A stretch of DNA of 64,000 bases. Source: Vicinamibacterales bacterium. GTDB lineage: Bacteria; Acidobacteriota; Vicinamibacteria; Vicinamibacterales; UBA2999. The translations under genes and the position numbers were made by a program. The number at the start of each line of letters is the position of its first letter. Within the stretch, counting starts at the first letter, position 1. Where the stretch lies: NCBI GenBank assembly GCA_041394685.1, contig JAWKHU010000034.1, positions 150,827 through 214,826 on the forward strand, written 5' to 3'. The notes under the pieces are model-generated. The model was not told the origin of the DNA and did no database searches. It worked only from the letters and a program-made list of their open reading frames with translations. Shown here in pieces: positions 16,681 to 37,008 of the stretch.

Positions 16681-18336
16681 GTGACCGGCCTCCCGATGCT
16701 CTCGCTCGCCATCCTCCTCCCCGTGCTCGGGGCCATCGTGCTGCTCTTCGTGAGCAACCGCGACGGCTCGAAGGACGGCCTCATCCGCACCATCACCTTC
16801 GGGGTGTCGCTGGTGACCTTTGCCGTCACCCGGGCCTCTGGGCCGGGTTCGACACCGCGCCGGCCGCCGAGTCGTTCCAGTTCGTCGAGCGCCACCCCTG
16901 GATTCCGACCTTCGGCATCGAGTACTACCTGGGCATCGACGGCCTCAGCCTGATGCTCATCGTGCTGACGGGCTTCCTGACGCCGATTGCGCTCCTGACG
17001 TCCTGGGAGAGCATCGAGAGCCGCGTGAAGGAGTTCTCCATCTTCATGCTGGTCCTCGAGGCCGCCATGATCGGCGTCTTCTGTTCGCTCGACCTCTTCC
17101 TCTTCTACGTCTTCTGGGACATCCTGCTCATCCCGATGTACTTCCTCATCGGGATCTGGGGCTACGACCAGCGCATCTACGCCGCGGTCAAGTTCATCCT
17201 CTACACGATGGCCGGCAGCGTGCTGATGCTGGTGGCCATCATCGGCCTCTCGTGGATGAACCACGCGGCCACGGGTGAATACAGCTTCGACCTGCTCAGG
17301 CTCTACGCGCTCGACATCCCGTTCAACACGCAGTACTGGTTCTTCCTCGCCTTTGCCATCGCCTTTGCGATCAAGGTGCCGCTGTTCCCGTTCCACACGT
17401 GGCTGCCCGATGCGCACGTGCAGGCGCCCACGCCGGGGTCCGTCATCCTGGCGGGCGTGCTGCTGAAGATGGGCGGCTACGGGCTCATCCGGTTCGCGTT
17501 CCCGCTCTTCCCTGAGGCGGGCGCCTACTTCGCCCCGCTCATCGCCGTCCTGTCGGTCATCGCCATCGTGTACGGCGCGCTGGTGGCGATGGTGCAGCCG
17601 GACATGAAGAAGCTGGTGGCCTACTCCTCGGTCAGCCACATGGGCTTCGTCGTGCTCGGCATCGCCTCGCTCAATCTCCAGGGCGTGCAGGGCGCCTCAT
17701 GCCCAGATGCTGGCGCACGGCGTCAGCACGGGCGGGCTCTTCGCGCTGGTGGGCATGATGTCCGACCGCCGCCACACGCGCCTCATCAGCGAGTACGGCG
17801 GCATCAAGAGCGTCATGCCGCGCCTGACGGCCGCGTTCCTCATCATCACGCTGTCCTCGGTGGGCCTGCCCGGCATGAACGGCTTCATCGGCGAGTTCCT
17901 CATCATGCTGGGTGCGTTCACGTGGAACCCCTGGTATGTCGTCGGCGCCGGGCTCGGCGTCATCCTCTCCGCGGTCTACATGCTCTGGATGGTGCAGCGC
18001 GTGTTCTACGGCCCCGTCACCAACGACCACAACGCCCACCTGCCGGACCTGTCGGTCCGCGAGTGGGCCATCATCGGCCCGCTGGCCGCCATGGCCATCG
18101 TGATGGGCGTCTTTCCCAACGTGTTCCTCAAGCCCATGGAGCCGGCCGTGGACCGCATCGTGCAGCGCGTGATCGCGCACCAGCCTGCCTCCGCACGCGC
18201 GAACGATGGCGTGCTACGGCAGGCAGGCCCTGACGCACGCGTGAACGATGGCGTGCTGCGGCAGGTAGGCCCGGACGCCCGCGCGAATGGCGTGCCACGG
18301 CAGGCCGAGACCCTGACGAAGGCGGGGGACAACTGA
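16681..18336 (+). CDS. nuoM: NADH-quinone oxidoreductase subunit M (frameshifts near 16832 and 17697)
   Basis: Three consecutive frames (16681.., 16953.., 17707..) together give a complete NuoM: '...[18 protein letters not shown]', '[33 protein letters not shown]' and '[13 protein letters not shown]'. Confidence 0.9.
18193..18309 (+). repeat. 42-bp in-frame tandem repeat (about 2.8 copies) in the nuoM 3' end
   Basis: It encodes '[14 protein letters not shown] / [14 protein letters not shown] / [11 protein letters not shown]'. Confidence 0.85.
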
Positions 18337-19937: not shown

Positions 19938-20119
19938 CGTTCTTCGTGCTCCTCGGGGTCTCCGCACTCTACGTGACGCCGTTCCCCATGCCTTCCGCGC
20001 TCTACGCGCTCTTCGTGCCCTCCGCGTTCTCCATGCCCTTCGTGCTCTCCGTGTTCTCTGTGTTCTCCGTGTCCTCCGTGTCCTTCGTGTTTTCCGTCCC
20101 CTTCGTGCCCTTCGTGCCT
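19938..20119 (+). repeat. Inverted-orientation (CCCTTCGTG-type) microsatellite array ending 2 nt before the symporter ATG
   Basis: '...ctcttcgtgccctccgcgttctccatgcccttcgtgctctccgtgttctctgtgttctccgtgtcctccgtgtccttcgtgttttccgtccccttcgtgcccttcgtgcc'. Confidence 0.9.
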
Positions 20120-20121
20120 CG

Positions 20122-21416
20122 ATGACGCTCACGATTCGGGTCCTGGCCGGGCTGGTCGCTGGCTTCCTGCTGGGCCTCGCGCTTGCGGGGCCGGCGGCTC
20201 CGGCGTCCACGCTCGTGGTCGGCATCCTGGCGCCAGTCGGCGAAATCTTCGTCAACCTCATTCGCATGACCGTGATTCCGCTCCTGGCCTCGATGCTGGT
20301 GGCCGGCATTGGCGGCATGCCGCGCGCGGGCGGGCTGGGGCGGACCGGGCTGCGCGGGCTGGCGATCTCGGTCGCGCTGCTGACGATGGCGGCGGCGGTG
20401 AGCGTGGTGGTGGCGCAGCCGGTGCTGGCGCGGCTCGACATCGATCCGTCGGCGGCGCAGGCGCTCCGCGCCCAGAGCGGCGTGACGGGTGCGGACGCTG
20501 CGGCGGCGGCCCCAACCCTCGGGAGCTGGCTCGTGGAACTGGTCCCGGTGAACGTGGTGCAGGCGGCCGCGGACGGAGCGGTGCTGCCCGTGATTCTGTT
20601 CTCGGTGCTGTTCGGGTGGTCGCTCAACCGGATCGAGCCTGGACGGCACGAGGCCGTGCTGCGGGTGGTGGAGGGCGTTGCCGAGACCATGCAGCGCCTC
20701 GTGGTCGGCGTCTGGCGCTGGCGCCGATCGGCGTCTTCGCGCTGGCGGTGCCTCTGGCCGCCCGCCTCGGCTGGCGGCTGCCGGCGCCGTGCTGGCCTAC
20801 GTCGGCCTCGTGGTGGTGCTCACCGTTATCGCGATCGCCGCGGTGCTCTACCCGCTCGGCGTGCTCGTCGGTCGCATGCGCCCGGCCGCCTTCGTCGCCT
20901 ACTGCGCGCCGGCGCGAGGCCATCGCCTTCGCCTCCCGGTCGTCGCTGGCCTCGCTGCCGGCCATGGTGGCCAGCGCCGAGCGCGCGGGCCTGCCGCCGA
21001 GCGCCTCACGCGTCGTGATGCCGTTCGCCATGGCGGTGTTCCACTTCGGCGCCGCCATAGCCCAGGCGGTCGGCGTGGTGTTCCTCGCACGCCTGTTCGG
21101 CGTCCAGCTGTCGCCGTCTCAACTCGCGTCCATCGTGGCGGCGGTGGTTCTCGCCTCGTATGCCGTGCCCGGCATTCCGGGCGGCAGCATCATCGGGATG
21201 GTGCCGGTGCTGATGGCGGCCGGCCTGCCGGTGGACGGCGTCGGCATCCTGCTGGCGGTGGACACCATCCCGGACATGTTCCGGACGACGGCGAACATCA
21301 CGGGGGCGATGACCCTGACGGCGATCCTGGGGCACGGAGAACACGGAGAACACGAAGGGCACGAAGGGCACGGAGGGCACGAAGGGCACGCAGGGCACGC
21401 AGGGCACGAAGGGTAG
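20122..21416 (+). CDS. Dicarboxylate/amino acid:cation symporter (DAACS/GltP-DctA family); frameshifts at about 20700-20920; His/Glu/Gly tail encoded by the microsatellite
   Basis: 'VGEIFVNLIRMTVIPLLASMLVAGI', 'SSLASLPAMVASAERAGLP', 'YAVPGIPGGSIIGM' and 'LAVDTIPDMFRTTANITGAMT'. The tail is 'GHGEHGEHEGHEGHGGHEGHAGHAGHEG'. Confidence 0.85.
21332..21413 (+). repeat. CACGAAGGG-type 9-nt microsatellite (7 GGG tracts spaced by 6 nt) forming the symporter 3' end
   Basis: 'gggcacgaagggcacggagggcacgaagggcacgcagggcacgcagggcacgaaggg'. Confidence 0.9.
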
Positions 21417-21432
21417 GAGGCTATCCTCACTT

Positions 21433-21497
21433 CCAAGCCCCAAGCCCCAAGCCCCAAGCCCCAAGCCCCAAGCCCCAAGCCCCAGGTCCCAGGTCCC
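21433..21497. repeat. 7-nt microsatellite CCAAGCC x7 followed by CCAGGTC x2, abutting the intI stop codon
   Basis: Read directly. The minus strand is (CTTGGGG)n. Confidence 0.9.
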
Positions 21498-22465
21498 TTA
21501 CAACCGATCTGCCGGGCTCCGCACCCCGAGGCCGCCGCGGCTCAGCACGTGGGTATAGATCATCGTCGTGCTGACGTCGGCGTGGCCCAGCAGTTCCTGA
21601 ACGGTGCGGATGTCGTATCCATCCTCGAGCAGGTGTGTGGCGAACGAATGGCGCAGCGTGTGACAGCTCGCACGCTTGGTGATGCCGCAGGCCCTTACGG
21701 CCGCGGTGACGGCGCGCTGGATGACGGTTTCGTGGAGATGGAAGCGGCTCGGCGGGCCCCAGCGCGGGTCCCGGCAGATGCGGGCAGCCGGGAAGACGAA
21801 TTGCCACGGCCACGACGAAGCGGCGTTGGGATACTTGGCGGTCAGCGCATCGGGAAGCACCACGCGCCCGAATCCTTGCGCGAGGTCGGCGTCGTGCAGA
21901 CGACGGGTCTCGTCGAGCTGTCGTCGCAGGGCCGTCACGACCGACGCGGGAAGCATCGTGACGCGGTCCTTGCGGCCCTTCCCCTGGCGCACGATGAGTT
22001 CCAGCCGCTCCAGGTCCACGTCCTTGACGCGCAACGACAGGCCTTCGAGTAGACGCAGGCCGCTGCCGTAGAGCAGCGATGCCACAGGTGCGAGACCCCC
22101 TCCAGGTGCTCGAGGAGCCGGCGGACCTCTGGCGGGTCAGCACGACGGGCAGGCGCGGGGGTGTGCGCACGCGCGTGAGTGCCGGCAGGTCTCCCAGTGG
22201 ACGGCCGAGGACGTGTTCGTAGAGGAACACGAGTGCGCACAGCGCCTGGTTCTGTGTGGACGCGCTGACCTGCCCCCGCACGGCCAGCGCGGACAGAAAG
22301 GCCGACACCTCGGCGCCACCGAGGCGGTCGGGGTGCTGCAGCCGGTGGAACACGACAAAGCGACGTGTCCAGTGCGCTGTAGGCCTCCTCGGTCCGGGGG
22401 CTGAAGTGCCGAACGCGACAGGCCCGGCGCACCCGGTCGAGCAGTCGTGGCCGTTCCCCCGACAT
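21498..22465 (-). CDS. intI: Integron integrase IntI (tyrosine recombinase); at least 2 frame breaks in the N-terminal half (about 22090-22380)
   Basis: ORF 21498..22085(-) has '[16 protein letters not shown]' and the IntI-specific insertion '[50 protein letters not shown]'. It also has '[40 protein letters not shown]...GVRSPADRL', close to the IntI1 pattern. The N-terminus is '[29 protein letters not shown]'. Confidence 0.92.
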
Positions 22466-22639
22466 CGCGGCCGGACCGCCCCATCCGCCTTCTTGTCGCC
22501 GTCATCCTGGTCCATGGCGAACCAGCGAGCCAGTTCCGTGCCAGCGCCGCTTTCAGCCGGCGCGGCCCTGCAGGAGCATCAGATGCCAAGAACGTTTCGG
22601 AATATGCCACCTGACCGTCTTCGGCCAACGCATCACTTG

Positions 22640-25885: not shown

Positions 25886-26233
25886 TTGGCCCGGCCCGCG
25901 GTGCGTGCCAGTCAGACCCTCGACGACCTCGCGGTCCTTGTGCTGCTCGCGATCTGCAGTTGCATCTGCGTCCCGGCCTCGCTCCGGATCGTGGCGGACG
26001 CTACGGCTCCCGGCGACGACCGGGGCGTCTCGTGCATGTGGGGACGTGGCCCGGTCAGTTGGGGCGCGTTCGGCGGCGCGCCTTGGGCGCGGCGGCCGTG
26101 GAGCCGGCGTGAGCGGTCCGGGCCGGCCATCACCCCGGTGCGCCTCGCAGACGGCGCGCCATGGTCCGGGCTCATCGACCGGGGGTGCGTGTTCCGGACA
26201 GCCGGTCGGCGATCGCCGCGTCCGGCTGGCTAA
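25886..26233 (+). CDS. Cassette 6: uncertain ORF (115 aa)
   Basis: This is the only frame whose stop is the TAA of the attC R'' core, as in cassettes 2, 4, 8 and 11b. The N-terminal part 'TLDDLAVLVLLAICSCICV' is TM-like, but the rest is compositionally poor and frame errors are likely. Confidence 0.25.
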   Translation: MARPAVRASQTLDDLAVLVLLAICSCICVPASLRIVADATAPGDDRGVSCMWGRGPVSWGAFGGAPWARRPWSRRERSGPAITPVRLADGAPWSGLIDRGCVFRTAGRRSPRPAG

Positions 26234-26382
26234 CCAGACGCTGCAGCTGACCATCGGCACCGCCATCATCAAGCCCGGTGTCATCATCGTGGTTCCGCGG
26301 GCAGTCGGCGGGCGTATTATCGGAGGCGCTTGCTCCCAGCGTGCTCTTGGTGCCGCTGGCAGCTGAGCGCTGGTCGTTAGCC
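26228..26382 (+). repeat. attC 6 (155 bp, long variable loop)
   Basis: R'' GGCTAAC 'cagacgctgcagctg' ... 'cagctgagcgctggtc' R' GTTAGCC. Confidence 0.8.
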
Positions 26383-26422
26383 AGACAGAGAATCGGCGTG
26401 GCGCCAACAACGAGGTCGTGAG

Positions 26423-26978: not shown

Positions 26979-27311
26979 ATGGATCAGCCGGACATCCGGG
27001 ATGCCCGTGCCAAAGCGGCCAAGATCGCAGCGGCGGTCTTGGCAAGGCAGCTCAGTCCAGTACTGGGCGCCGTCGACTTGAACAGGCTGCGCTTTTCGGT
27101 GGACGTGCCGACCGACGACCCAGACTTTGAAACGTTCATCCTTATCGACTCGGAGTGCGATGGCCTGCCAATCGGGTCGGTTCGGCAGTACTGGTCTCCC
27201 GAGGCGCTTACCCGAAAAGAACCTGAGGTCGCGCATGCCGAGCGTTGGGCAATGGACGCTGGCGCCGAAGCCTTCAGGAATGTGCTGGAGCGCTTTGGGC
27301 CCGCTGCCTAA
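26979..27311 (+). CDS. Cassette 8: hypothetical protein (110 aa)
   Basis: Intact ORF with its stop TAA in the attC R'' core. Confidence 0.5.
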   Translation: MDQPDIRDARAKAAKIAAAVLARQLSPVLGAVDLNRLRFSVDVPTDDPDFETFILIDSECDGLPIGSVRQYWSPEALTRKEPEVAHAERWAMDAGAEAFRNVLERFGPAA

Positions 27312-27412
27312 CAAGCCGCTGCACCTGACGGCAACGGGGCCCGCTCGCGCGTGCCCCTGCGCTCGGTGGTGTCGTGACTCGCGCTGCCGCAGGTGAGCGG
27401 CAGCCGTTAGGC
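27306..27412 (+). repeat. attC 8 (107 bp)
   Basis: R'' GCCTAAC 'aagccgctgcacctgacgg' ... 'ccgcaggtgagcggcagcc' R' GTTAGGC. Confidence 0.85.
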
Positions 27413-27439
27413 CGGATCAAGATTAGTCGGGTCAATCGA

Positions 27440-27796
27440 ATGAAGTGGATAGAGCGGGTGTTCGGACGCCGCAGGCGCATCGTTGATATGACGGCCGAAG
27501 AAGTTGCCGCGACCATCGAGAACTTTATCGAAGGCCGTGGCGGACCTTGGGAATGGGACGACTTTCTGTCCTTCCAGATCACGGACCCGCAACTCGAGTC
27601 TATTCGGGAACGCTGCAACGGACTGTCGGAAGAGTGTCCCCCTGGTATGGGTGGCGGCTATTGTGGGCTCGAAGGCGTTGACGTCATGCGCGTGTTCGTT
27701 CGGGAACTCAGGGAACGTGCGGCCAAACAAACCGCTGTACCTGACGGCACCGGGTCGCGCTCGGTGCAATCCGTGCCGCGCGCATGCCGCAGGTGA
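27440..27796 (+). CDS. Cassette 9: hypothetical small protein
   Basis: ATG 27440 gives 'MKWIERVF...EEVAATIENFIEGRGGPWEWDDFLSFQITDPQLESIRERC...'. The tail reads into the attC. Confidence 0.5.
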   Translation: MKWIERVFGRRRRIVDMTAEEVAATIENFIEGRGGPWEWDDFLSFQITDPQLESIRERCNGLSEECPPGMGGGYCGLEGVDVMRVFVRELRERAAKQTAVPDGTGSRSVQSVPRACRR

Positions 27797-27813
27797 GCGG
27801 CACTCCGTTGGGC
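27722..27813 (+). repeat. attC 9 (92 bp; same arm subtype as attC 8)
   Basis: R'' GCCAAAC 'aaaccgctgtacctgacgg' ... 'ccgcaggtgagcggcactcc' R' GTTGGGC. Confidence 0.85.
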
Positions 27814-27831
27814 TGCGAACTGGAGCAAGCC

Positions 27832-28362
27832 ATGATGAAGATCCCTAGGATGCGAATACCGGTGTTCGTCTCGGCTCCCAGTCCGGACAATCTCAGTCCC
27901 TCTCAAGAGCAGAGCGCGGCCATCATCCAGAAGCTTGTAACGCGGTACAAACTGGAATGGCGCGCGTTGGGACGAAGCGACTATCCCAATAGCCTTCCTC
28001 TGAAGGAGGTCCTGAGGATGGTCAAGCATTGTTCGGGAGGGATCATTCTTGGCTTCGAGCAGTTTCGAGCGCCCAACGGGAGTTCAAACCGGGCAGCCCG
28101 AACGCAAAGACTGCAACGTCCGCAGTGTCCTTCCCGACTCCGTGGAATCAGCTCGAAGCAGGCATCCTTTTCAGTAGCGGTTTGCCGATGGTGATCTTCA
28201 GAGAGGCCGGTATCGCAGGTTGGGTGTTTGATGTGGGGACGTCAGAGGTGTTCATCCACCAGATGCCGAACTCTGCGATGGCACCTCAAGCCTTGGACGA
28301 TCTGGATTCCCGTCTTCCAGAACTGGGTGGCTCGTGTCCGGACTCACTACTATGGCGAGTGA
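27832..28362 (+). CDS. Cassette 10 gene A: TIR-like / nucleoside 2-deoxyribosyltransferase-like protein (about 175 aa after two frame corrections, near 28085 and 28305)
   Basis: 'MMKIPRMRIPVFVSAPSPDNLSPSQ...VKHCSGGIILGFEQF' is followed, after a shift, by 'FPTPWNQLEAGILFSSGLPMVIFREAG' (N-x3-E-x-G motif). A further shift gives '...WIPVFQNWVARVRTHYYGE*'. Confidence 0.45.
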
Positions 28363-28651
28363 CTACTGTCCCCAACCGCTTTCCACCGACCACATCCAGT
28401 TGGATGACGACCTGTTGAAGCTTGTCGAGCGACTGGCAGAACACGCGCACGACATCTGGGCACTGCAGAGAATCAACGATGGATGGCGCTTCGGGCCGGA
28501 GAGGTGCGACAACACGAAGCGTCACCCCTGTTTTGGTCCCGCACTCGAAACTGCCCGAATCAGAGAAGTCATGCGATCGCAATGCGGTTGTTGGCACGAT
28601 CCGGGCAGCACTCGCTTTGGGTTTTGTAGGTACGAAGTGTTGCTCCGATGA
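28352..28651 (+). CDS. Cassette 10 gene B: RyR-domain protein (frameshift near 28530; 3' end uncertain, 28651 or 28727)
   Basis: ATG 28352 overlaps the gene A stop (ATGGCGAGTGA). 'LVERLAEHAHDIWALQRINDGWRFGPERCDNTKRHPC' is followed, in the shifted frame, by 'LVPHSKLPESEKSCDRNAVVGTIRAALALGF'. Together these match the RyR (PF02026) consensus as I remember it. Confidence 0.6.
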   Translation: MASDYCPQPLSTDHIQLDDDLLKLVERLAEHAHDIWALQRINDGWRFGPERCDNTKRHPCFGPALETARIREVMRSQCGCWHDPGSTRFGFCRYEVLLR

Positions 28652-28653
28652 AG

Positions 28654-28718
28654 CAGCCCAACAGGGCGCTGCAGCCGACGGCTGCGCGGCGCGGCTGAGC
28701 GCTGACGTCGGTCGTTCG
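28654..28718 (+). repeat. attC 10 (65 bp, short)
   Basis: R'' GCCCAAC 'agggcgctgcagccgacgg' ... 'gcggctgagcgc...gtcggtc' R' GTTCGAC. Confidence 0.75.
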
Positions 28719-28769
28719 ACGGACTAATCGACCACACTGAAGATCAGCTAAGGCAACTGAGGAACTGAC

Positions 28770-29245
28770 GTGAGGCCTCGCTATCTTTGCCAGGACTGCC
28801 TGTTCCTGGGTGCCCCGGCGAAGCGTCTGGTGGGGTCTCCTGCCCTGGAATTGGTCCTCTGGCTCGTCTGGTGGTTCCGGGCGCGGCGTATGCGTGGTGG
28901 CGTCGTCGGGGAGTGATCTTGCTGTGCGACAGGTGTGGCGGTCCGCGCGTCGTGCCGGAGGTCAGCCCCGAGCAGAGATCGACGATTGCCGCGCACCCCA
29001 GACTGCCAGACGAAGTAGTGGGGAAGGCCACGGTATTCTGGCGCGTCTTCTGGGCCATGCCGGTGGCGAGCGGCGTTGGTGTCGTAGCGTTGTTCGTTCT
29101 GTCGGCGTTGGTTCCAACGGTTCGGGCCCAGCCCTGGTTCGGCTGGCTCGTTTACGGTGTCGCGGCGCCAATCGTTGGGCACGGGTTGTGGTTGGCGGCG
29201 CACTTGGTGTCCTCGGTGGTTAGAAGGCTCCGTGCGCGCCTCTGA
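28770..29245 (+). CDS. Cassette 11 gene a: membrane protein with a split zinc-ribbon (CxxC - TM - CxxC) and two further TM helices; GTG start; frameshift near 28870
   Basis: 'VRPRYLCQDCLFLGAPAKRLVGSPALELVLWLVWW' is followed, after a shift, by 'VPGAAYAWWRRRGVILLCDRCGGPRVVP...', then the hydrophobic 'VFWAMPVASGVGVVALFVLSALV' and 'FGWLVYGVAAPIVGHGLWLAAHLV'. Confidence 0.5.
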
Positions 29246-36870: not shown

Positions 36871-36888
36871 GCGCCCGGTCCCGTATTT

Positions 36889-36968
36889 CTGCCTTGAGCC
36901 TTTTGCCTTGAGCCTTTTGCCTTGAGCCTTTTGCCTTTTGCCTTGTGCCTCCTGCCTTCTGCCTTCTG
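36889..36968. repeat. 7/14-nt microsatellite (TGCCTTGAGCCTTT x3, then TGCCTTN units) downstream of the DHFR-family gene
   Basis: Read directly. It is the reverse-complement type of the AAGGCA repeat at 48350..48412. Confidence 0.9.
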
Positions 36969-37008
36969 AATTCCGCGTTCCGCCTTCCCCCTTGATACCG
37001 TGGTCCGC

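Follow-up and report, generated by a model that had tools for sequence, protein, structure and literature searches.

An integron cassette that pairs a protein of predicted TIR/N-glycosidase fold with a stand-alone RyR domain, a candidate conflict module

Cassette 10 and the state of its two genes

The window analysed here, a 64,000-nucleotide stretch of contig JAWKHU010000034.1 from a Vicinamibacterales bacterium, carries an integron whose tenth gene cassette (cassette 10) contains two overlapping genes. Gene A encodes an uncharacterised protein with a predicted fold of the TIR and nucleoside 2-deoxyribosyltransferase (NDT) type, and gene B encodes a stand-alone RyR domain. The pair and its overlap are conserved across phyla and are under purifying selection. 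A first-pass annotation, made from the letters of the window, had proposed the two genes as a candidate defence module. Cassette 10 and its borders comprise the following features:

27716-27817, plus strand: attC site of the preceding cassette (covariance model R1, 68.2 bits, E 1.4e-12; attC alignment; direct-repeat family D10)
27822-27825, plus strand: GGAG, Shine-Dalgarno-like, 6 nt before the start codon of gene A (read from the sequence)
27832-28362, plus strand: gene A, uncharacterised TIR/NDT-fold protein of 176 amino acids once corrected (stop codon 28360-28362)
28143-28163, plus strand: codons of the A signature W104-N105-Q-L-E108-A-G110 (alignment and model helix 103-114)
28352-28362, plus strand: 11-nt overlap of A and B, ATGGCGAGTGA, with B starting within the final codons and stop of A
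28352-28727, plus strand: gene B, stand-alone RyR domain of 124 amino acids once corrected; the tail of its open reading frame (ORF) crosses the attC site
28448-28450 (H33), 28457-28459 (W36), 28523-28525 (H58) and 28575-28577 (D75), plus strand: residues of ligand-binding or catalytic type in B (alignment, motif spacing)
28650-28724, plus strand: attC site of cassette 10 itself, a short variant (model R1, 40.3 bits, E 3.5e-6; attC alignment)

Model R1, a covariance model trained on the window's own repeats, placed 12 attC sites on the plus strand. The integrase domains lie on the minus strand (21427-22515), opposite to the attC array. Crossovers of the G/TT type at 27807/27808 and 28714/28715 limit cassette 10 to 27808-28714, and it is the tenth cassette from attI, which adjoins the divergent intI. 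The covariance model and the position of intI bear out the attC-bounded tenth cassette of the first-pass annotation; its start at 27808 was right, and its end at 28718 lies 4 nt beyond the crossover. A sigma-70-like promoter was sought in 27300-29000 and none was found, hence none within cassette 10, which fits the expectation for a promoterless integron cassette. The bin 28001-28500, inside cassette 10, has a G+C content of 0.572, the lowest among the 500-nt bins of the window, as had been noted before. Bounded by attC sites, placed in an array beside intI and without a promoter of its own, cassette 10 is an integron gene cassette, and its features are not a chance pattern. Elsewhere in the array, the attC site at 26222-26386 is unusually long (165 nt) and was recovered by the covariance model though absent from its training set. 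Tandem repeats with periods of 9 and 14 nt lie just beyond the integrase gene and farther downstream (20001-20116, 21321-21422, 21433-21502 and 36877-36988); the array at 21321-21422 is the reverse complement of the 20001-20116 repeat type.

As the sequence stands, neither gene is open. Gene A opens fully only when one G is added to the GGG run at 28078-28080 and one C is removed from the CCC run at 28309-28311. The corrected protein of 176 amino acids aligns without gaps to intact homologues of 174-176 amino acids. Gene B needs an extra T removed from the TTTT run at 28531-28534. The two 1-nt corrections in gene A had been proposed in the first-pass annotation and are borne out, and the third, in gene B, had been applied there silently. 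Aligned at the nucleotide level with locus L005, an intact relative (about 88% identity across the aligned part), cassette 10 shows exactly three single-base length differences, all of them within runs of 3-4 identical bases. Furthermore, two substitutions fall at conserved positions: G130W in A (codon TGG, 28221-28223), where Gly is near-invariant elsewhere, and Y64H in B, where every other B sequence has Tyr and the codon differs from that of L005 at two nucleotides.

These observations bear on whether the window copy is a dead relic with both genes inactivated, a reading that concerns this copy and not the function of the family, and to which we give even odds. The three single-base indels relative to intact L005 and the two substitutions at invariant or near-invariant positions agree with it, and the two nucleotide changes in the Y64H codon make a single base-calling error unlikely. 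Frameshifts across the array were judged from split Pfam domains; a frame plot of G+C at third codon positions is too noisy at 57-65% G+C. By this measure intI (21427-22628, minus strand) is itself in two frames, with Phage_int_SAM_4 in ORF 21427-22515 and Phage_integrase (PF00589) in ORF 21498-22085, which fits an inactive, decaying array. Either intI has been inactivated, as has happened in many sedentary integrons, or the assembly contains an indel here. In most other cassettes the ORFs fill the cassette, which also speaks for decay of cassette 10, as do the unbroken frames of PurH and a second antiporter-type gene (1.6-1.7 kb) and the three indels of cassette 10 within 0.9 kb.

Other evidence speaks against a relic. 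A Nuo/Mrp-type gene at 16953-18336 (plus strand) is split near 17700, with positions 1-201 of Proton_antipo_M in ORF 16953-18233 and positions 205-288 in ORF 17707-18336, and such a break in a housekeeping-type gene suggests that the assembly contains homopolymer errors. With this gene, and probably cassette 11, also frameshifted, homopolymer errors are a real possibility for cassette 10, whose three indels all lie in short runs. Moreover, the ratio of nonsynonymous to synonymous divergence (dN/dS) relative to L005 is 0.06 for A and 0.12 for B (dS 0.57), and therefore any decay would be very recent at most. The window copy is either inactive, as a recent pseudogene, or mis-assembled. Next to it, cassette 11 (28770-29245, plus strand) encodes a small CxxC...CxxC zinc-ribbon-like protein with a hydrophobic middle, for which no Pfam match was found; the protein appears split between ORF 28770-28916 and ORF 28787-29245, with a probable further frameshift near 28880.

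Predicted fold of A and putative nucleotide pocket of B

The best-conserved residues of A are F11, S13, Q24, P55, C66, G68, G73, W104, N105, E108, P118, G130 and F132. W104, N105 and E108 are each at least 90% conserved in a 57-sequence alignment that reaches down to 27% identity. The first-pass annotation had read an N-x3-E-x-G pattern here; the actual motif, W-N-Q-L-E-A-G, is N-x2-E-x-G. The WN..EAG motif is retained in proteins in which A is fused to other domains (P0126, P0136, P0203, P0213 and P0243). A word-indexed search returned 1,398 homologues of A, and the best 120 of them are 71-93% identical, measure 154-290 amino acids (mostly 170-178) and come from very different phyla. An exhaustive profile search gave 1,020 clusters at 50% identity (E<=1e-3). 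Homologues of A on plasmids are limited to 6 records, and none was found among 50,697 phage records.

By sequence, A lies outside any described TIR or NDT family. It has no match at E<=1 in Pfam, NCBIfam, PADLOC or PHROGs, and this includes the TIR-type Pfam families (TIR, TIR_2 and ThsB_TIR; PF01582, PF13676 and PF08937), the ThsB and TIR models of PADLOC, and the nucleoside 2-deoxyribosyltransferase-like superfamily (PF05014) in Pfam and NCBIfam. The A family profile found nothing among PDB sequences even at E<=10. When the A profile was compared by hhalign with a hand-made alignment of six TIR sequences, the probability was 0.6%, a weak negative since this TIR profile is shallow. None of the matches expected for A in the first-pass annotation (TIR_2, DUF1863, PF05014) occurs, and A is a relative of these proteins at the level of the fold only. 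Neither does A fall into an unrelated housekeeping family without a catalytic Glu, the outcome named there as refuting the proposal: it matches no profile library and its Glu is conserved.

The fold itself was predicted with AlphaFold. The model built on the 57-sequence alignment has a predicted local distance difference test score (pLDDT) of 93.4 and a predicted template modelling score (pTM) of 0.88; an earlier run on 39 close homologues (70-93% identity) gave a pLDDT of 51.6 and was discarded. The model is a three-layer alpha/beta structure that runs through strand, helix, strand, helix, strand, hairpin, helix 103-114, two strands and a long C-terminal helix, with the hairpin predicted as an insertion at about residues 77-100. 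Foldseek matches of A in the PDB have E values of 7e-5 to 4e-3 and TM-scores of 0.44-0.60. The top match is MilB (4OHR; E 7.4e-5, TM 0.55/0.60), and further matches of N-glycosidase type are BcmB, nucleoside 2-deoxyribosyltransferases and DNPH1. MilB and BcmB, the best structural matches, are CMP N-glycosidases. A thus has an NDT-like fold, with moderate similarity at a root-mean-square deviation of about 6 Å. Matches of TIR type are SARM1, TIR-1, SpbK, TIR-STING and the SPARTA TIR (E 2e-4 to 4e-3, TM 0.44-0.51). In a library of viral structures, A matched deoxyribosyltransferases, a CMP hydrolase and a CAP12/Pycsar TIR-like protein. The model and the Foldseek matches support the TIR/nucleoside-2-deoxyribosyltransferase-like fold with a conserved Glu that had been called in the first pass, and this fold call is probably right.

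In the model, the WN..EAG motif opens helix 103-114, within which E108 lies. E108 would therein occupy the position where TIR- and NDT-type enzymes carry their catalytic Glu, and the roles of W104 and E108 in A are predicted from this placement. A Trp four residues ahead of the Glu is the 'W-x3-E' catalytic pattern of TIR NADases, and N-glycosidases of the NDT type have a motif of the G-T-x2-E type. A shares with MilB, BcmB, DNPH1, NDT and ThsI a Rossmann-like sheet and a conserved Glu that opens the helix after the central strand (E 7e-5, TM 0.55-0.60). It differs from MilB, BcmB, DNPH1 and NDT in showing no profile similarity to them and in having W-N-x2-E and the hairpin at about 77-100. 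With the enzymatic TIRs (SARM1, AbTir, SpbK, TIR-STING and the SPARTA TIR) it shares a fold match, the Trp-x3-Glu pattern and an exchange of A for TIR behind a CHAT-like domain (see below), but the TM-scores are low, Pfam TIR does not match and the hhalign probability is that given above. Raw, a protein of TIR fold, degrades cyclic ADP-ribose (cADPR) instead of making it.

Gene B is a clear RyR domain, as the first-pass annotation had expected. The corrected protein matches Pfam RyR (PF02026) with 99.6 bits (cutoff 27.4) and E 1.2e-28, covering positions 1-87 of the 91 in the profile. Its identity to repeat 1 of mammalian RyR2 is about 50% (E 7e-54), and it also matches the Bacteroides RyR-like structures 6UAG and 3NRT (E 3e-26). 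H33, W36, H58 and D75 are invariant in 22 B proteins linked to A. Their spacing of 3, 22 and 17 residues equals that of H75/W78/H100/D117 in RyDEP and of H129/W132/H154/D171 in RyR-Tad, a comparison of motif and spacing and not of superposed structures. Phage RyDEP, a dimer, is an inverting glycosidase that cleaves 2'/3'-cADPR at the ribose-ribose bond; its catalytic dyad consists of H75 and D117, W78 stacks on the adenine and H100 contacts the phosphates, and other phage RyDEP homologues act as nanomolar sponges (PMC13232231). RyR-Tad binds 3'cADPR (43 nM), 2'cADPR and cADPR through H129/W132, H154 and D171 (10.64898/2026.06.04.730250). The earlier statement that ligand binding by such domains is predicted, but not shown, is therefore outdated, since two preprints of 2026 demonstrate that RyR domains of phages bind or cleave 2'/3'-cADPR and cADPR. 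Judged by its residues, B very probably binds nucleotides of the ADP-ribose (ADPR) type and possibly hydrolyses them.

RyDEP (mycobacteriophage DyoEdafos gp78) and RyR-Tad (Pectobacterium phage CB1 gp68) have PF02026, the His-x2-Trp...His...Asp spacing and a small size compatible with dimers in common with B. They differ from it in being encoded by phages, whereas B is found in bacterial chromosomes and integron cassettes. Moreover, B is 33-47% identical to phage RyR domains but about 50% identical to repeat 1 of animal RyR2, and its translation is coupled to that of a TIR-like partner not found in phages. Among the 50,697 phage records, 190 contain RyR domains, the best matches to B falling in the same 33-47% range, and small stand-alone RyR proteins in bacteria give at least 7,900 matches. 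With B in a chromosomal integron cassette and its relatives in bacterial genomes, the locus is not a phage anti-defence locus.

Conservation of the pair and its genomic company

A followed by RyR was found in metagenome-assembled genomes of Variovorax, Bryobacteraceae, Actinomycetota, Verrucomicrobiia and Thermoanaerobaculaceae, in Actinoplanes sp., and on a 750-kb and a 77-kb contig. The arrangement spans at least four phyla (Proteobacteria, Acidobacteriota, Actinomycetota and Verrucomicrobiota), so that the co-occurrence named as a check in the first pass is found across phyla. Of 21 metagenome loci in which A shares at least 59% identity with the window's A, 16 have it as well. The 11-nt overlap, from the ATG of B to the end of the stop of A, recurs in 20 of 21 other parsed A+B loci, and the translational coupling read earlier from ATGGCGAGTGA is real. 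Flanking genes vary from locus to locus without a constant third gene (four annotated loci), and the G+C content of A is usually below that of its surroundings; A+B is therefore a self-contained, horizontally moving two-gene module. Loci L005 and L013 appear to be flanked by attC sites, judged by eye only. Beyond this integron, model R1 recognises only a Chloroflexia locus (L017) that holds A alone.

The pairing is not obligatory. Intact A stands without B in Tunturiibacter (L001) and in L008, L009 and L011, the last of which is syntenic with L010, where B is retained; L014 has a decayed remnant of B beside an intact A. In 5 of the 21 close metagenome loci A has no B. Moreover, a sister clade with 51-58% identity to the window's A never has RyR; it comprises 59 loci, of which about 50 extend far enough downstream to tell. 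The loss or decay of B beside intact A in L001, L008, L009, L011 and L014 means that A works without B. This observation decides against a toxin-antitoxin pair as the main reading, in which A, as an NADase or nucleotide glycosidase, would be constitutively toxic and B would neutralise it as the antitoxin, together helping to stabilise the integron array. A small, promoterless cassette of two overlapping genes whose second protein has about 96 amino acids does resemble such a pair; integron arrays carry toxin-antitoxin cassettes, and NAD-targeting toxins with small antitoxins are known in RES-Xre and MbcTA. However, B is gone or decayed beside intact A in at least 5 genomes and 5 metagenome loci, which would be lethal with a true toxin, the whole sister clade (about 50 loci with enough flank) lacks RyR, and RyR domains bind nucleotides and are not known as protein antitoxins. 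We therefore rejected this reading as highly improbable.

A-type domains keep company with conflict genes. Fusion partners of the A domain are TIR_2, DUF4231/SLATT, CHAT, Trypsin_2 and pentapeptide repeats, and the fused TIR, CHAT and trypsin domains match effector models of PADLOC. The CHAT-like N-terminal domain of one fusion (P0203, CHAT-A) is 41-46% identical to the N-termini of cyanobacterial plasmid proteins that end in TIR, and A and TIR therefore interchange at the same position. The TIR-ending counterpart of P0203 lies on a Calothrix plasmid (L107, 2980-4083). In eight loci of the sister clade (e.g. L051, 2697-3617) the stop of A overlaps the start of an FRG-domain gene (PF08867), which matches the PADLOC defence candidate PDC-S15 (E 6e-39), and in four further loci the neighbour is a SLATT_3+SLATT_1 membrane protein with two transmembrane segments. 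The A family therefore has several alternative partners. In Tunturiibacter (L001), A lies among SIR2_2 and nSTAND-WD40 genes. On the Halorubrum lacusprofundi plasmid pHLAC01 (L105, 3392-5480), an archaeal A homologue (WP_012660041.1) directly follows a ThsB_TIR gene and lies opposite a second one. A cyclase-like gene lies downstream of it, in a Thoeris-like arrangement with A in the place of an effector or sensor. The first-pass annotation had assigned A an effector role; this is uncertain, as the fusions and partners fit a sensor or regulator equally.

B-type RyR genes without A have similar neighbours. Four of six contexts adjoin ThsB_TIR/TIR_2-ankyrin, TIR_2-STAND, DUF4062-STAND or TCAD9/TPR-S genes; of the remaining two, one lies beside a TrkA_N-RyR protein and one is unrelated. 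A recurrent pair in Planctomycetota/Pirellulales consists of a stand-alone RyR gene of about 96 amino acids followed by a TCAD9/TPR-S protein (L098-L100, 4001-5603; L108, 4001-6592; L109, 245-2836). The gap between the two genes is a few nt in L108 and L109 and 64 nt in L098-L100, and TIR_2- or DUF4062-STAND-WD40 NTPases adjoin the pair. TPR-S is thought to sense cADPR in type VIII Thoeris (10.64898/2025.12.03.692087). These loci look like a second, larger host system that uses RyR with TIR-type signalling. Bacterial RyR proteins beside TCAD9/TPR-S and TIR- or DUF4062-STAND genes are 51-57% identical to B and, like B, are encoded by the host, here beside TIR-type machinery, but they belong to large multi-gene systems without the A family, whereas A+B is a minimal two-gene unit. 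In Pelotomaculum propionicicum (L111, 3829-4294), a stand-alone RyR gene overlaps an upstream ORF of 60 amino acids by 11 nt, the same as in A+B; no Pfam match was found for that ORF. In sum, A-type domains and B-type RyR proteins each occur in conflict contexts with TIR, SLATT, CHAT or TPR-S.

Such company would also suit a receiver and effector, in which B senses a cADPR-type signal from a TIR encoded elsewhere and switches on A, which would deplete NAD+ or nucleotides as a MilB/NDT-like N-glycosidase. The top structural matches of A are CMP N-glycosidases, the type VIII Thoeris effector ThsI is CMP-hydrolase-like and activated by cADPR (10.64898/2025.12.03.692087), and the Halorubrum A sits in the effector place beside two ThsB_TIR genes. 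The recurrent pairing of RyR genes with TPR-S proteins points the same way, and translational coupling suits a two-subunit enzyme. However, intact A persists without B and therefore does not depend on it as an activator; no TIR gene is linked to the four annotated A+B loci; and the fusion of A to other effector domains would be unusual for an effector. We regard this arrangement as distinctly unlikely.

The two-gene logic of A+B resembles Thoeris (types I-XI), in which a ThsB TIR generator works with a signal-sensing effector: a protein of TIR-type fold is joined to a putative recogniser of cADPR-type molecules, and the SLATT, caspase-like and TIR modules of Thoeris are also fused or adjacent to relatives of A. 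In contrast to Thoeris, A has no TIR/ThsB profile or PADLOC match and B is a RyR domain of about 96 amino acids without a killing domain, and by its genes A+B is not a Thoeris system. In the text of a 2025 survey of Thoeris, RyR is not mentioned among the 29 predicted effector types.

A proposed role in NAD-derived nucleotide conflict

We propose, with a probability of roughly 45%, that cassette 10 is a mobile, self-contained two-gene module that acts on NAD-derived nucleotides of the ADP-ribose type in a context of conflict or abortive infection. A would be a divergent enzyme of TIR/N-glycosidase fold that cleaves or cyclises NAD+ or a related nucleotide through Glu108, with Trp104 four residues upstream. 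B would be a dimeric RyR protein made in a fixed ratio with A through the 11-nt overlap, and it may bind, and perhaps hydrolyse, a cADPR- or ADPR-type product in its His-Trp-His-Asp pocket. In this way B could gate, buffer or terminate the output of A, as a safety catch or threshold against self-intoxication. We infer the chemistry of A, the ligand of B, their physical or functional coupling and the defence phenotype, and a defence function of A+B is plausible. The model would explain the conserved overlap, the interchange of A and TIR, the host RyR genes beside TIR-type genes and the absence of A from phages, as well as the tolerated loss of B if B is an accessory regulator. The evidence converges on NAD-derived, ADPR-type nucleotide chemistry in a conflict setting more than on any one assignment of roles to A and B.

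The proven activities of phage RyR domains, as sponges or glycosidases for such signals, suggest signal quenching instead. In that case the pair would be a host off-switch or a mobile counter-defence, with both proteins removing TIR-derived signals, likened to the stand-alone CARF ring nucleases of type III CRISPR. Like phage RyDEP and RyR-Tad, B would sequester or hydrolyse the O-glycosidic signals 2'/3'-cADPR, and A, as a TIR/NDT-fold glycosidase or former sensor, would bind or hydrolyse N-glycosidic cADPR, N7-cADPR or His-ADPR, or further process ADPR. Consistent with this, Raw, a protein of TIR fold, is a cADPR-specific hydrolase (PMC13455253), A occupies a sensor-like place beside CHAT, trypsin and SLATT effector domains, so that a stand-alone A could be a free sensor or sponge, A and B each occur alone, as expected of two independent quenchers, and the pair moves as a self-contained unit, in integron cassettes and low-G+C islands. 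On the other hand, A is absent from all 50,697 phage records and is present in just 6 plasmid records, which is unexpected for a counter-defence gene; the strict 11-nt overlap suggests a stoichiometric complex and not two separate sponges; and no Thoeris or TIR generator lies near the A+B loci examined. That phages have RyR but lack A argues for a cellular role of A rather than phage counter-defence, and the phage counter-defence form was down-weighted for this reason. Quenching as a whole appears unlikely.

Several observations count against our proposal of an NAD-derived nucleotide module. The window copy has three frameshifts together with G130W and Y64H at otherwise invariant positions. 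A has no sequence-profile link to TIR or NDT families, its TM-scores to known folds are only 0.44-0.60, and its identity of 70-93% across phyla is unusually high for an immune gene. There is no killing effector other than A itself, and the fusions of A to effector domains fit a ligand sensor as well as an enzyme. B is lost or decayed beside intact A in many genomes, so that A works without it. The four annotated A+B loci lie outside recognisable defence islands and share no constant third gene; this setting and the high conservation of A would weigh against any defence reading. Finally, what is known of the family comes from sequences and models.

Neither the A family nor a bacterial pair of TIR-like and RyR proteins was found described in PADLOC v2, literature searches, the 2025 Thoeris survey, a preprint on component modularity or the two RyR preprints. 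The text of the RyDEP preprint contains no 'TIR-like' or host-encoded terms, and RyR is not mentioned in Kaur et al. 2020 or in a survey of jumbo phages. The claim of the first-pass annotation that the pair is not among the named defence systems thus holds: neither gene matches PADLOC and no paper on it was found. Taken together, A+B probably belongs with the conflict systems that use TIR- and NAD-derived nucleotides, built on an unannotated domain family; the window copy may be non-functional, and the module itself is probably undescribed.

As of mid-2026, activity of the RyR (Repeat12) domain as a binder or glycosidase of TIR-made cADPR-type signals is known from phage counter-defence proteins only. 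Bacteria themselves carry thousands of small RyR proteins, and one subset of these is tied by the 11-nt overlap, in at least four phyla, to an unannotated family of TIR/N-glycosidase fold. In its boldest form, the pair would be a minimal bacterial immune-signalling unit in which A makes a cyclic-ADPR-type nucleotide and the host RyR protein is its dedicated receptor or regulator. The cADPR-ryanodine-receptor axis of animals would then have in this unit a prokaryotic counterpart and perhaps its evolutionary origin, and the A domain would count as a new module of nucleotide signalling that works with SLATT, caspase-like, trypsin-like, TIR and FRG partners; we consider this unlikely. If the pair acts on NAD-derived nucleotides, A would represent a new enzyme or sensor family in TIR-type immunity, and B the first host-side role of RyR, in buffering, sensing or terminating signals. 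The pair would also offer a tractable system of 270 residues for the original ligand of the Repeat12 pocket of animal RyR, and it extends the functions proposed for integron cassettes by a candidate conflict module.

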